NCBI GenBank assembly: GCA_002778455.1
Contig: PFCD01000019.1
Location: 10,243-74,242, forward strand
DNA: 64,000 nt
Direction of reading: 5' to 3'
From: Candidatus Micrarchaeota archaeon CG10_big_fil_rev_8_21_14_0_10_45_29
Lineage (GTDB): Archaea; Micrarchaeota; Micrarchaeia; Anstonellales; Anstonellaceae
The notes beneath the pieces were generated by a model. The model was not told the origin of the DNA and did no database searches. It saw nothing but the letters and a program-made list of their open reading frames with translations. Made by a program: the position numbers and the translations under genes. This document shows positions 40,388 to 53,718 of this stretch, in pieces (within the stretch, counting starts at the first letter, position 1; every line of letters begins with the position of its first letter).

Positions 40388-42493
40388 TTATGTCAAATCA
40401 GGGCAGGCAAGCACGCTGCCGCAGTTTATGTATGTGAAATTGTAATTGTTTTTCTCGTTTGACTCGATGATATCATATCTTGAGTCAACTTCCATTTCTG
40501 CCTTGAAAAGCCCTGGGTGGGGGCACTCAAATATTATTGATGAGTGCGAATATTTCCCGCCAAATGCCGGAACCGGGGTTGTTACTTTCTCTGTTTTTGA
40601 GGTAAGGGATTCTATGCTATACCAGTCATAAAAGTCATAGCGCGTTGGCTCATCCCCGTTGTTTCTTACCGAGAAAGTTACAGCAAAGATATCCCCTTTT
40701 GCAGATGATGCCTCTATTATTGGCACCAAATCAAGTGCTGGGCGTATTTTTATGTTTTCATCAAGCGAGCATGCAAGGGTTCCCCCTTCTGTTGTGTTGC
40801 CTGTTACAAATATGTTTCCTATCCCTGTTGAAGGGGAGATGTCATTTGGAAGCAGGTTGTAAGTGTAAAGCATTGCCTCAGGAATTGGAGGGTCGTTGTA
40901 TGGGGCATTTATGCTTGTTGTTATTGGCCCGTTTGAGTATGCCACTGGGGGAAGGGTTTCTTTTGGAGTGCCTATGCGCGCAAGCTTTACCTTGTCTGCA
41001 AAGCCGGTTGCGCTCCACTGCAAAGTGTCGCATGAAATAGGGGTTGAGTCGCGGTAGCATGTTGTTGAGAGAAGAATATCCTCTCCCGCGTTTATTTCAT
41101 TTGGCAAGCCAGCCAAAGAGAGGTTTGTGCTTACATTGCAGGAATAATTTGAGGGTGAGAAATCTATTGTTACGTTTGTGGTGTTGGTGCATATGTCGCC
41201 ATCGCATAATGGAATAGTGGACTCTATTTGCACCTCCACCGCCAGCTGCCCGTCTGCGGGGTTTCCTGCGGTAATTATTATGCTAAGTGCCTGAGTCTCG
41301 CCAGGGTTTATTGTTTGCCCAAAGCCGTTTGGAGGAGGCTCTGTTGCAGGCGCAACTAGCCATCCCTGCCTTGCTGTGCGCACCCCTGTTGCGCGAATGG
41401 GCGCATTATCCGTATTTTCAATTGTTATTATTGTATTTACAATATCGCCGGGCGCCACGTTTGAGAATACGGCGGGAGAGACAGTGGATGTGAGGGCGCA
41501 GGTGTTTTGGTCAAGCACGGTTATTGTGTATTCTGTATTTGTTTTTGCAGGGAAATAGGGGGCGGTTTCTCGGTAAAAATAATATTGCCAGTTGGCTTCA
41601 GGGTATGAGCGGATGGGAAGCTTTCTTGCAACTCCCATGCACTCATCAACATTTAATTCGGGAGCAAGAGTGTAGGTGCCGCCGTTCTGGAAATTCAGGC
41701 GTGTTGCTGCGGAAGGGGACATTCCCTCAAGCCGATAGGTGTTGCCGTTAACAGAGAATTCTCCGTTGCACACAAGCGCGCCCTGCGCCTGCTGGTTTGG
41801 GTATAGCGGGCAATTTAGAAGGGGCTGGTAATCGCAGTTTATATTTGAGAGAAACTGGATTGCCGCCCACTCATCAAGCAATTTGCCGCCCTCATATTGA
41901 TTTGAGCGCTGGCTTGCGCGCATGCACTCAAGAAGCTCGCCGCTTGTTAATGAAAACCCGCTGCATAAGATTTGCTGGGCAGAATTCCATTGCACCGGGT
42001 TTGAGCTGCTCGGAGAGAGCCATGGCATCTCATCATTCAGGCAGGTTGTGCGCAAGCCGCATGTGTCGCTGCCTATTGTCTCATATTTTGGATAGCAGTT
42101 TGAGTCAAATTCGTCCTTGCACTGCGGGCATAGCGGCTCATCCACTGGGTTGCCGGGATAGTCGGCTATGCAAAAAAGAGAGTCAGATGCCCATTGGCTC
42201 TCGGATGCAAGAAAAATATCAAGCATTCCGGGACACATTGTAAATTCATCTGGCAAATCATTTGGGTCTGCGCCGGGTGTGAGTATTATGAGGGAGCCGC
42301 CCGAACTCGCGTTTGAGAGGCGGGTATCCAGCTTGAAATCAACGTCGGATTGAAAAAGAGTTTCTCCTGTCCTTTTCTCTATTACTGCCGCCTCAAAAAG
42401 AGAGCTTTGCTCTGCAAATATCATGCCTGCAAAAAGCAGCAAGATTGCGAATGCGGCGCAGATGCGGATATTTTTTTCCATATTACCTACCAT
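40388..42493 (-). CDS. Secreted Cys-rich surface protein with CARDB-like Ig domains
   Basis: Sec-type signal (MEKNIRICAAFAILLLFAGMIFA/EQ; the alternative ATG at 42481 has a TAGGT Shine-Dalgarno-like motif). Many Cys residues. The C-terminal domain FAVTFSVRNNGDEP...EVDSRYDIIESNEKNN is a classic CARDB ending, and a second Ig-like module is present (IITIENTDNAP...). There is no C-terminal anchor. Confidence 0.6.
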   Translation of the reverse strand: MVGNMEKNIRICAAFAILLLFAGMIFAEQSSLFEAAVIEKRTGETLFQSDVDFKLDTRLSNASSGGSLIILTPGADPNDLPDEFTMCPGMLDIFLASESQWASDSLFCIADYPGNPVDEPLCPQCKDEFDSNCYPKYETIGSDTCGLRTTCLNDEMPWLSPSSSNPVQWNSAQQILCSGFSLTSGELLECMRASQRSNQYEGGKLLDEWAAIQFLSNINCDYQPLLNCPLYPNQQAQGALVCNGEFSVNGNTYRLEGMSPSAATRLNFQNGGTYTLAPELNVDECMGVARKLPIRSYPEANWQYYFYRETAPYFPAKTNTEYTITVLDQNTCALTSTVSPAVFSNVAPGDIVNTIITIENTDNAPIRATGVRTARQGWLVAPATEPPPNGFGQTINPGETQALSIIITAGNPADGQLAVEVQIESTIPLCDGDICTNTTNVTIDFSPSNYSCNVSTNLSLAGLPNEINAGEDILLSTTCYRDSTPISCDTLQWSATGFADKVKLARIGTPKETLPPVAYSNGPITTSINAPYNDPPIPEAMLYTYNLLPNDISPSTGIGNIFVTGNTTEGGTLACSLDENIKIRPALDLVPIIEASSAKGDIFAVTFSVRNNGDEPTRYDFYDWYSIESLTSKTEKVTTPVPAFGGKYSHSSIIFECPHPGLFKAEMEVDSRYDIIESNEKNNYNFTYINCGSVLACPDLT

Positions 42494-42503
42494 ATATGCG
42501 ATG

Positions 42504-52200: not shown

Positions 52201-53695
52201 CCTCTTCCCCCTGCCAGTTGGCGGATGATTCTTTTGCATCTACCCAGAATTTTTGCGATGTTTTGTATTCTTTTGAAGTGATTACGGCAAAGCCGCGCCC
52301 TTTTCTGTCAAGTGATTTTTGAAAAATTAAATTTGCAACAAAGTCGGAATTATCCGCATAATTGAATTTGCTTGAAATTTGGTATGAGTTGCGCTTTGAT
52401 TTTCCTTCGGGGTTGATGTAACCTTTTGCGCGACCTTCTTTCACGGTGCTCCACCGGTCATTGGAAATAAGGTTCATGAAATACATAAGCTCGCGCCTTG
52501 CATCATCAAGCTCCGCGTCTGAGAGGTTTGGCTTGAGAAACATGTCGCGAATCGCTAAGAGGCGCGAATTTACAGTTTCGATTGAATTTTGTATATACTC
52601 CTGCTCATTTGGCGGGTTTTGAAGCATTTGCAAACCTTTTCCGGCTTCCTCAACTAATTCTGCGCCGAATTTATCCCTCTCCCATTCCTGCACCCCCAAA
52701 TAAGCATACGCGTCATCAAGGGCTTTGCCGCTCTGCCCGGTGTAAAGTGAGGAAATTATTGTGGAGGCGGCCTTTTGCGCCTTTATCATTACCTCAAGCT
52801 GGGCGGCTAATTCTGCAGGCTCTAAAGTGGGGTCAAGAAATACCAATGGAGAGAGATTTTTCTCGTCTATCCCAGTTATTTTTGAGGCGACGCGCCCGAC
52901 AGATGCTTTATTTTTTGGCCCGTCAACCCCTGCAAAAAGATAGTTGTTTGTAATTGAGATGGGGTTGCCGCGCGCGTCGGCTATTGTGTAATAAGAAACA
53001 TCTGCAACGGTTACAAGGCGGGAGCTTAGTATTCTTCCCGAATAATTTTTTATTATCTCATCTTTTTGCGCCTGCGAGAGAGAGGCGGTTTGCAAAAATT
53101 GCTCTAATACATTTATTGAATTTGGGAGTATTTTCCATTGCTTTGGCTGGTTGAATTTTTCAAGAAGCATTTGCCCGAAATCCTCCGAGAGCCCTTCTGA
53201 GTCGGCTGATGCGCCGGCAGCATCAAAAAGAAATTGGCGAAATATTCCGACGCACATTTCTGTGAGGGGCGCGACCGCGTTTTTTCGCATCTCCTCCTGC
53301 GTCTTCTCATCAAGGGAGAGGTTTCCCCAGCTTCTTGGCACCCAGAAATTGTTAAGGCGGGCAGAGGATTCATCAAAGCCGGCGCCTGAGAGCTTTTTGC
53401 CGTGCAAATCCGTAATATAGCTGTCTGTTGGGTTTGAGAGCAAAAGCTCTCCGCAGGATTCGCTTATAAGAGATGCCGAAGAGATTGCAAATGAGCCGGA
53501 GGCGCCTCCCTCCTGCTCCTCAAAGATGCTTCTTCCTAATGTGATTGCATCCATAAAGCCGGAATTGTTTATTGTTTTCTGCTCTGGAGTTGGGCCTTTT
53601 GCCTTGTTAAAATTTATTTTTGGCTCGGCTGCGCTTGTTGAGCCGCCCGCCTCTTTTTGGGAACGATATACCCGCAGCTGAAATAAGAATGCCAT
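49202..53695 (-). CDS. Orphan giant protein (1497 aa from ATG 53695) with conserved N-terminal MAFLFQLRVYRSQKEAGGS peptide, beta-strand-rich module and E/P/K-rich tail
   Basis: Uninterrupted ORF. The track start at 53704 is TTG and the first ATG is at 53695. The C-terminal third has long runs of amphipathic strands (e.g. VELGATFSYHPNFELEG, NFRIRANYGATYMAGSR, STSYYKITAALNFDISG). The terminal ~150 aa are low complexity. Confidence 0.6.
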   Translation of the reverse strand: MAFLFQLRVYRSQKEAGGSTSAAEPKINFNKAKGPTPEQKTINNSGFMDAITLGRSIFEEQEGGASGSFAISSASLISESCGELLLSNPTDSYITDLHGKKLSGAGFDESSARLNNFWVPRSWGNLSLDEKTQEEMRKNAVAPLTEMCVGIFRQFLFDAAGASADSEGLSEDFGQMLLEKFNQPKQWKILPNSINVLEQFLQTASLSQAQKDEIIKNYSGRILSSRLVTVADVSYYTIADARGNPISITNNYLFAGVDGPKNKASVGRVASKITGIDEKNLSPLVFLDPTLEPAELAAQLEVMIKAQKAASTIISSLYTGQSGKALDDAYAYLGVQEWERDKFGAELVEEAGKGLQMLQNPPNEQEYIQNSIETVNSRLLAIRDMFLKPNLSDAELDDARRELMYFMNLISNDRWSTVKEGRAKGYINPEGKSKRNSYQISSKFNYADNSDFVANLIFQKSLDRKGRGFAVITSKEYKTSQKFWVDAKESSANWQGEEGAASATLHVQLERGASLAPINPALYAKNLEDMVKAVNSNDVQISATHLGNNHFAVKISEQYSMQSAGEKTGENKNEEKGEDKKGEFTLTTTSSTYNTPLYFAGEDMEKLLLFVPSTLNENATPIPILSINATSSTSSTIIERPLPSGFYAGGNMGMNFMGDSPQNRGFGDFAPNKDEIGEQGTRKDKSAPFFANFMGEKFANPLIAGNPLPYLSIMENLPEFESIYSDIDLLLEGAGGAQGMNVQLLEALFKNNVSGMFSKFLSYEQNGKFMKMSPDAVVEVTGDGNFKNVLLNYFECAYWRRVYSSASLVDIDRESYGRKWKEAEMNMLISGAKFAGLSAYNCHLWNSFFWNTLDSLTESLQKNGVSGKVGYLFNWLGAENRVELGATFSYHPNFELEGMGLAGSINSFAMLGSFIYSIHWADEVNFRIRANYGATYMAGSRLQKENPQINSALLPVSAAWNALWDAFQNSQSTGTPITAEQRIDLCDALIAQADIFSRALADDKEGQKLCEDLIFWAQDMKGKTWSTTHSLLQLKSAYDALSSHIGKEYSLAKRSDAYLDVFGYNHPTGEREGTHDELIPGGNISWIQQKGEQEMSSWMPLGTMAVEVFGHIPVYKGISADYLLTARPPPSLFFSVIGMTRPDDEMKTSDYVKGLKEGLPMLNTSTPTLDLNLRLSKELREPWFNTRLMGAIEWAFNANHLVTTGISGTLQWVPTENLFGSYSPTTISLKYGFSKPIDGGSDWKYGIFSSARGYEINITQALPNVLNGLVVSASYANQAQPVGYVDINTGEVKRNFGASTSYYKITAALNFDISGSTEKLPPSPAAFNDYSTDPRLNPYLRRSTIGYWKEEEPQERKTLMESTGAPAQTQTIPAEEESTPAQAFPGKESKTQTPVQEETPERKTGRRRRRIPPKQEEVLPETKKAEIKEIPAQPKEKEELPQETIKPEERTPEEKPMQNEPPAQEEIPEKPPQEEKEAKEKEPPQNARRRRRRTPPK

Positions 53696-53718
53696 CTTAT
53701 GCAAACTAAGAGGAGAAG

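Follow-up and report, generated by a model that had tools for sequence, protein, structure and literature searches.

A conserved block of four large genes, three of them encoding undescribed protein families, between pgk and rpoK in a groundwater micrarchaeon

The 64-kb stretch of DNA analysed here (the window) comes from a metagenome-assembled genome (MAG) of a Candidatus Micrarchaeota archaeon from Crystal Geyser groundwater (CG10_big_fil_rev series), and identical DNA is also present in ENA and JGI assemblies. Between pgk and rpoK it carries four minus-strand open reading frames (ORFs), designated gA to gD, for products of 1497, 1282, 919 and 701 aa, with intergenic gaps of 79 nt (gA-gB), 10 nt (gB-gC) and 10 nt (gC-gD). 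All four products are annotated at NCBI as 'hypothetical protein'. The arrangement is as described in an initial annotation made from the sequence alone, in which the block was put forward as a candidate undescribed system of the archaeal envelope or of host interaction. The block takes up ~13 kb, which is a large investment for a small genome, and its four candidate genes are conserved and under selection. The molecular basis of host recognition, attachment and resource uptake in DPANN archaea is largely obscure, and the Micrarchaeota of neutral groundwater are uncultivated.

Novelty and conservation of the block

No Pfam match was found for gA, gB and gC or their homologues, and the three window products had no match in NCBIfam, PHROGs or PADLOC. 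Comparison of the three family profiles with PDB sequences gave best E values of 0.06-0.46, all for short, spurious alignments. The three products are also unrelated to one another (hhalign probability ≤3%), the beta modules attributed to gA and gC are not detectably related either, and no internal repeats were found in the products. By every test run, gA, gB and gC fall outside all described families; hence, they constitute three previously undescribed large protein families, and the block is new at the component level. The statement that the first three products belong to no recognised family is thus borne out, and the profile and fold searches for characterised families that had been proposed as a check matched gD alone.

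Relatives of the block are known from only three other metagenomic lineages, giving four in all with the window. One is a close relative from the same site (contigs L006 and L008; 66-88% identity), and the other two (L005 and L007) are distant, their sources being Logan runs SRR28093593/SRR28370466 and JGI 3300071178. An exhaustive HMMER search with gC over the 1.84 billion representatives of clusters that cover about 15 billion proteins returned gC itself and a single further protein, P0003 (938 aa, 27% identity), and a word-indexed search of 5.8 billion clusters returned only the self match. For gA, the word-indexed search of the 5.8 billion clusters found one 1489-aa protein (38% identity), the self match being missing because the gA cluster is represented by a 96-aa fragment. 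In the same search, a three-sequence gB profile retrieved the known members and one 79%-identical protein (P0006), and nothing else. These searches of large protein collections were confined to gA, gB and gC. Profile pattern scans for gA and gB across 185,579 GTDB species genomes gave no match and likewise missed the source MAG itself, an absence that is weak evidence given that two short peptide patterns were used for each. Scans of IMG/VR for gA and gB found no relatives, and a scan of JGI metagenomes yielded one fragment of the close lineage only.

As far as the contig of each lineage extends, the gene order PolB ... GAPDH, pgk, gA, gB, gC, gD, p217, bPH_2, rpoK is kept in all four lineages. 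The suggested check of co-occurrence and order thus shows the four genes together, with their order unchanged, in all the related lineages that were found. The best-conserved member is gA, which is 37-43% identical to its homologues in P0002/L005 and L007 and 78-88% identical to those in L006/L008. The corresponding values for gB are 29-34% (L005 and L007 homologues) and 79% (P0006), gC is 22-27% identical between the window and the distant lineages, and gD is 33% identical to the L007 gD over its N-terminal part (residues 14-446). Over the same long range the neighbours are more alike (PolB 73%, GAPDH 71%, p217 61-62%, pgk 56-58% and bPH 53%), and the block thus diverges faster than the adjacent genes. 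A faster divergence than that of housekeeping genes at short range was considered and rejected, as gA (78-88%) and gB (79%) compare with 77% for pgk. The block is inherited vertically and, in the public data, is confined to a narrow clade of groundwater Micrarchaeota.

The ratio of non-synonymous to synonymous substitution (dN/dS) was estimated by the Nei-Gojobori method between the window and the close lineage. Values of 0.10-0.15 for gA, 0.13 for gB and 0.22 for gC were obtained, as compared with 0.20 for the neighbouring pgk, and these are not the values of chance ORFs. Relative synonymous codon usage in the block correlates with that in the housekeeping genes of the window at 0.74-0.89, the range for the housekeeping genes among themselves being 0.66-0.87, and the GC content of the block is marginally above that of its surroundings. 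The block ORFs are real, native genes under purifying selection. Recent horizontal transfer of the block was also considered and was dropped on account of the native codon usage.

Transcription units and N-terminal tags

The gB-gC junction measures 10-21 nt across lineages, being G-rich and of 12-21 nt in L008, L007 and L005, and gC and gD are 10 nt apart in the two lineages in which their junction is visible. G-rich runs resembling a Shine-Dalgarno sequence precede gC, and in L007 also gD. In the window this run lies within GGGGTGAATT, where a Shine-Dalgarno motif had been noted in the gap before the third gene. Given these short, conserved junctions, gB, gC and gD are regarded as one operon, tightly and translationally coupled. 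In contrast, gA is probably a transcription unit of its own, as judged by the 79-nt gap, its own conserved upstream region and the gene on the opposite strand that separates gA from gB in the distant lineages. The single operon initially proposed for all four genes is therefore retained for gB-gC-gD and probably does not extend to gA.

A 33-nt non-coding stretch between gA and gB, tctcgtaattttcagtaatgcttaaaaacaatc (window 49140-49175, minus strand), is identical in L008 (2274-2337). This stretch is better conserved than the coding sequence and is therefore probably a promoter or 5'-untranslated region element for gB. Upstream of gA, a TATA-like 'TTTTTTAA' is present in an A/T-rich context ~26-33 nt ahead of the ATG, a position which suggests that the gA transcript has a short leader or is leaderless. 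A scan for promoters and terminators of the bacterial type is uninformative for an archaeon.

The opposite-strand gene between the gA and gB homologues (L005 5529-6428 and L007 2193-3104) encodes a very basic protein of 299-303 aa. In this protein the sequence KKKQYVQPLPL is repeated in tandem two or three times, and a Costars match lies below threshold. The protein was not found in the window by tblastn.

The N-termini of gA and gB are identical at 16 of 22 positions, and the motif does not occur elsewhere in the six-frame translation of the window. A consensus FQ[LV]x[VI]YRSQK[ED]xGGS describes this tag in gA and gB of two lineages, the sequences in the close lineage being MAFLFQVRVYRSQKEAGGS and MLFQLNIYRSQKDGGGS. 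The four tag DNAs differ from one another synonymously (TAT/TAC, TCC/TCG, CTT/CTC, GGC/GGA/GGG), and the residues just downstream diverge freely. Selection therefore acts on the tag peptide and not on the DNA, in agreement with the earlier claim that two giants lacking Sec signals share a selected N-terminal peptide. In the distant lineages it is gB' (MFARAAFSESEQ...NNTR) and gC' (MAFRAAYEQEDNNTR) that share an N-terminal peptide, and a different one, MF(A)RAA[FY]. A short N-terminal tag common to different block members therefore recurs, its sequence being specific to the lineage. The tag resembles a single amphipathic beta strand to which a glycine linker is attached, and it may be a common docking or targeting element.

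A functional analogy is provided by the donor-strand tags of chaperone-usher pili and archaeal thread filaments, in which a short N-terminus of alternating hydrophobicity (in the block, FLFQLRVY) and a Gly-rich linker likewise occur on subunits encoded next to each other. However, donor strands follow a cleaved signal peptide on small pilins with an immunoglobulin (Ig) fold, whereas the gA/gB tag is located at Met1 of signal-less proteins of 1300-1500 aa. Double-glycine leaders, which are 15-30 aa long, end in GG, have hydrophobic residues at -4/-7/-12/-15 and are accompanied by a nearby gene for an ABC transporter with a C39 peptidase, were considered as well, and the tag does end in GG in the window and the close lineage. 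This candidate was rejected: positions -4 and -7 of the tag are E and S, the distant lineages lack the GG, and neither an ABC nor a C39 gene is among the scanned window ORFs.

Anatomy of the products and their possible function

The product of gD is a Sec-secreted, disulfide-rich protein of the Ig/CARDB type and the sole block member placed in a known family. By a heuristic test, its residues 7-34 have a Kyte-Doolittle mean of 2.44, and the L007 homologue carries an equivalent peptide. With 24 Cys residues and a CARDB match above the Pfam cutoff (Table 1), gD is as it was first described. A weak Ig-like match and a weak match to a protocadherin-like PDB profile (E 0.0015) were also obtained. 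The N-terminal Cys-rich domain of 300 residues is conserved and has no family match, and the distant homologue does not share the CARDB/Ig-type C-terminal part. No membrane or S-layer anchor (C-terminal transmembrane (TM) helix or PGF-CTERM) and no second hydrophobic segment were found in gD, which ends ...CGSVLACPDLT. Thus, gD is similar to the archaeal secreted surface proteins with CARDB/Ig-like domains in its signal peptide, CARDB domain, weak Ig/cadherin-like matches and many Cys residues, and differs from them in the Cys-rich N-terminal domain without a family and in having no C-terminal anchor.

The structure of gC was modelled with AlphaFold2 from a two-sequence alignment (mean predicted local distance difference test score, pLDDT, 45). 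In this model the N-terminal third is helical, with stacked helices at pLDDT 70-87 in residues 130-330, the middle is disordered, and after a small alpha/beta element the last 230 residues are all folded as beta hairpins. Foldseek comparison of the model with PDB gave weak matches of the HEAT/ARM type (best E 0.013), and nothing in PDB or BFVD fell below E 1e-3. Residues 690-919 are assigned ~14 strands in hairpin order by DSSP (pLDDT 25-40) and have a period-2 amphipathicity of 0.104, as compared with 0.021 +/- 0.019 in shuffled sequences (about 4 standard deviations). At 27% overall identity the C-terminus is kept, TLGLDFKF in gC corresponding to RLGLNWKF in P0003, with the pattern polar-x-G-x-x-aromatic-x-F.

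Invariant motifs occur along the full length of gA (among them FWVPRSWGNLSL, TVADVSYY, SNDRWS, NFRIR, DYLLTARPPPSLF and PTLDLN), and those in residues 760-1345 include the NFRIR, DYLLTARPPPSLF and PTLDLN motifs. The beta-periodicity of this region is 0.048, as compared with 0.022 +/- 0.011 in shuffles (about 2 standard deviations). An AlphaFold2 model of residues 146-1345, also from a two-sequence alignment, is unusable (mean pLDDT 36; mostly <50 in residues 760-1345). Hence, the two porin-like beta modules initially proposed are supported in part, with a strong periodicity and a low-confidence all-beta model for the one in gC and with the periodicity of about 2 standard deviations for the one in gA. 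The 152-residue tail that follows in gA had been described as polycationic. It contains 32 K+R against 34 D+E (net charge -2) together with 25 Pro and is thus not polycationic overall, but it does include two arginine runs, R5 and R6, each continued by xPPK (RRRRRIPPK and RRRRRRTPPK). The distant gA homologue P0002 likewise has arginine runs with PP after them.

In L007, the gA tail is split off into an overlapping 123-aa ORF (1785-2156) with basic motifs of the SRSR type. The split reflects either a frameshift or a faulty assembly of the low-complexity tail.

In gB, the invariant LGVTGSGG(L/M)F at residues ~818-829 is superficially like the GGGTGSG of tubulin/FtsZ, a likeness that is probably coincidental. 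A tubulin/FtsZ-like reading of gB was dropped, as there was neither a tubulin profile match nor any further signature loop.

Table 1. Features of the gA-gD block and its flanks, in window coordinates (aa, amino acids).
Feature	Position	Strand	Description and basis
gA	49202..53695 from ATG, or ..53704 from TTG	-	1497 aa (ATG); PIT84078.1, COU37_05470; ORF
gB	45274..49122 from ATG, or ..49143 from TTG	-	1282 aa (ATG); PIT84077.1; ORF
gC	42504..45263	-	919 aa; PIT84076.1; ORF
gD	40388..42493	-	701 aa; the NCBI call, PIT84075.1, has 697 aa; ORF
gA tag (residues 1-19)	53639..53695	-	MAFLFQLRVYRSQKEAGGS; conserved in L006
gB tag (residues 1-17)	49072..49122	-	MLFQLNVYRSQKEGGGS
gA upstream region	53696..53760	-	Largely conserved in L006; A/T-rich
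gA conserved C-terminal region (residues 760-1345)	49661..51418	-	Helices and amphipathic beta strands; alignments
gA disordered Pro/Glu/Lys-rich tail (residues 1346-1497)	49205..49660	-	Composition
gA/gB intergenic region	49123..49201	-	79 nt; 33-nt stretch identical in the 79%-identical relative
gB/gC junction	45264..45273	-	TAA-GGGGTGAATT-ATG; G run like a Shine-Dalgarno sequence
gC N-terminal helical-repeat, alpha-solenoid-like region (residues ~10-340)	44244..45236	-	Stacked helices in the AlphaFold model
gC C-terminal amphipathic all-beta module (residues 690-919)	42507..43196	-	Ends ...TLGLDFKF
gD signal peptide (residues 1-28)	42410..42493	-	Hydrophobic core, then IFA|EQ
gD CARDB domain (residues 593-684)	40442..40717	-	Pfam PF07705, E 9.1e-6, 26.3 bits (cutoff 22.7)
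p217	39668..40321	-	Co-directional, after gD in all lineages; 61-62% identical to L007 homologue

Our tentative proposal is that the gA-gD products form one multi-subunit assembly acting at the cell envelope. It is suggested mainly by the operon link to the secreted gD and, in addition, by the unconfirmed beta-strand modules. In such an assembly gD would be the exported, adhesin-like outer component. The alpha-solenoid of gC with its C-terminal beta module, the end of which is like a 'beta-signal', and the beta-rich C-terminal half of gA could together form a sheet, carried by helical scaffolds, that associates with the membrane or inserts into it. The gA/gB tag would serve as a common docking or targeting signal, guiding proteins that have no signal peptide to one shared partner or export route. 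In view of the lifestyle of DPANN archaea, the likely role would be host-cell attachment or exchange. If so, the block would represent a new kind of surface apparatus in archaea, one that might have a targeting signal of a new type, built from three families that have no relatives elsewhere in about 15 billion public proteins and with a tag that recurs on signal-less proteins. Of the initial interpretation, the part that stands is an undescribed, conserved and single functional block, and the envelope or cell-contact function is put forward here only conditionally.

The closest known kind of system is that of the SPEARE-type giant host-interaction proteins of DPANN archaea. Like the products of the block, the SPEARE proteins of Nanohaloarchaeota are very large, lineage-restricted DPANN proteins proposed for host contact and found in a narrow clade (PMC6642349). 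SPEARE consists of one polypeptide chain, which reaches 8,553 aa and has a TM anchor and serine-protease, laminin-G/adhesion and restriction-endonuclease domains (PMC6642349), whereas the block consists of four genes, has no sequence relation to SPEARE, and in gA-gC includes no recognisable domain, TM segment or signal peptide. In particular, neither the defining SPEARE domains (Pfam) nor a TM anchor was found in gA-gC.

Several observations weigh against a location of this assembly at the envelope. No Sec or Tat signal, TM helix, lipobox or sorting signal was found in gA, gB or gC, the highest 19-residue Kyte-Doolittle mean in these products being 1.06-1.21, below that of the TM or signal type. 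N-glycosylation sequons are not enriched in gA-gC of the window (z -0.5 to -0.6) or in their homologues (z -0.6 to +0.2), although sequon density proved uninformative as a proxy for surface exposure. Confidence in the models of gC and gA is low (mean pLDDT 45 and 36), and 'barrel' or 'membrane-inserting' are therefore predicted properties at most. We know of no machinery for beta-barrel insertion in Archaea, and the scanned window ORFs include no gene for a secretion ATPase, an ABC exporter or an Omp85-like protein. Finally, the N-terminal tags are not conserved over the deep split, and an opposite-strand gene parts gA from gB in two lineages.

Alternatively, gA, gB and gC might build a large cytoplasmic assembly (a scaffold, a cage or a cytoskeleton-like structure), with the adjacency of gD reflecting co-regulation or a loose functional link. 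We regard this as a serious rival, only somewhat less likely than the envelope assembly, as the missing export signals and the unenriched sequons suit it about equally well. It would account for the lack of export signals and TM segments, for the unenriched sequons and for the composition of the three products, which are acidic and Cys-poor (3-7 Cys each) like cytosolic proteins. The alpha-solenoid N-terminal part of gC is typical of scaffold proteins, and the arginine runs and prolines in the gA tail could bind nucleic acid or acidic partners. Large intracellular protein cages, the composition of which is unassigned, have been seen by cryo-electron tomography in a DPANN archaeon (PMC11329633) and are counted in favour of this alternative. 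Against it, the 10-nt gC-gD junction kept in both visible lineages argues for co-translation with a secreted protein, and an amphipathic beta module with a terminal aromatic motif, as found in gC, is more typical of membrane-facing sheets. If the assembly were cytoplasmic, its proteins would be candidate components of the large, so far unexplained assemblies inside DPANN cells. Under either reading, gA-gD are good targets for metaproteomics and structure determination.

It is unlikely that the block consists of four functionally unrelated, lineage-specific genes that are merely adjacent. In favour of this reading, at least nine other window ORFs of 170-606 aa lack a Pfam match, and no homology links gA, gB and gC; however, order and tight junctions are kept over a deep divergence, and N-terminal tags are common to different members of the block. 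ORFs without a Pfam match are frequent in this genome, as in DPANN genomes generally, and orphan status by itself is therefore less surprising.

A secreted or host-delivered effector complex similar to the Tc (ABC) toxins, released non-classically, with the beta modules as a pore in the host membrane and the gA arginine tail as a membrane-penetrating or nucleic-acid-binding element, appears less likely still. The analogy is one of working principle, as the Tc operons include several Sec-less proteins of 900-1500+ aa that may form a membrane-active complex. Three large signal-less proteins encoded consecutively, the amphipathic beta modules, the arginine runs (R5-R6) with PP behind them, which are conserved in the gA of two lineages, and the DPANN lifestyle would all suit an effector. 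Yet no Tc, RHS or pore-forming-toxin domain was found in the Pfam, NCBIfam and PDB searches. Specifically, the Tc hallmarks (TcA pore/shell, RHS/YD-repeat cocoon, SpvB) gave no Pfam or NCBIfam match in the window proteins and no Pfam match in the homologues. Furthermore, dN/dS is as low as that of pgk, without the diversifying evolution usual for effectors, and neither release nor lysis genes were found in the window.

More speculative, and improbable on present evidence, is the idea that gC, and perhaps gA, are true archaeal pore proteins that form a membrane beta-barrel or sheet. Being signal-less and carrying a beta-signal of the bacterial/mitochondrial type, they would be delivered with gB and gD to a second membrane, either that of a host or an unrecognised outer layer of the cell itself, with the tags as the targeting signal of a new Sec-independent route of export or assembly. 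The beta-signal of bacterial and mitochondrial barrel proteins has the form polar-x-G-x-x-hydrophobic-x-hydrophobic, and mitochondrial barrel proteins have no cleavable signal peptide. Like the barrels of outer membrane proteins (OMPs), gC ends in a run of predicted amphipathic strands, the last of which fits the beta-signal, although the motif is short and weak. The lack of a cleavable signal peptide is shared with the mitochondrial barrels, and hydrophilic N-termini set gC and gA apart from bacterial OMPs. Unlike in OMPs, the beta module of gC follows a soluble-looking part of 690 residues, and in gA the beta region is followed by the tail of 150 aa, so that there is no C-terminal beta-signal. 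No OMP or porin profile was matched in Pfam or NCBIfam by the window proteins, in Pfam by the homologues, or among PDB sequences. To our knowledge, this archaeon has neither an outer membrane nor an Omp85/BamA insertase, and no insertase of the Omp85/BamA type was found among the scanned ORFs of the 64-kb window. The double-membraned Altiarchaeum, a possible host, is present in the same aquifer, and an OMP-like relative has been proposed for Altiarchaeales (PMC12228718).

That the genes stem from an integrated virus or another mobile element, as a structural module now domesticated or in decay, is a reading which large orphan proteins with beta-rich modules and a gA arginine-rich tail loosely recalling capsid proteins might bring to mind. 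It is very improbable, given that there is no PHROG match, no BFVD fold match below E 1e-3 and no IMG/VR relative of gA or gB, that the block occupies the same chromosomal site (pgk-rpoK) in four lineages with proteins only about 24-43% identical, and that codon usage is native with no integrase, att repeats or tRNA nearby.

Surroundings of the block

Upstream, the block is preceded by pgk (Pfam PGK, E 8e-104) and then by GAPDH and PolB. Downstream are a 217-aa protein (p217), a bPH_2 membrane protein and rpoK (RNA_pol_Rpb6), pgk and rpoK being the flanking genes named in the initial annotation. The sole Pfam match of p217 is sub-threshold, to a CEP76 peptidase-like domain (transglutaminase fold), and its N-terminal part is coiled-coil-like. 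It may belong to the system as a fifth member or else to the rpoK neighbourhood.

No tRNA or Rfam element was found in the 64-kb window. The remainder of the window consists of ordinary archaeal housekeeping genes, including those for two Orc1/Cdc6 proteins, CTP synthase, argininosuccinate synthase and lyase, and Rpb7, mixed with many Pfam-less ORFs. Five Pfam-less ORFs (173-498 aa) follow one another at 15599-20934, and four more, of 315-606 aa, are located at 28340-29455, 30667-32244, 34516-36336 and 36387-37334. The two Orc1/Cdc6 genes (7395-8690 and 13534-14625, both on the plus strand) lie ~5 kb apart, and a replication origin may therefore be nearby.

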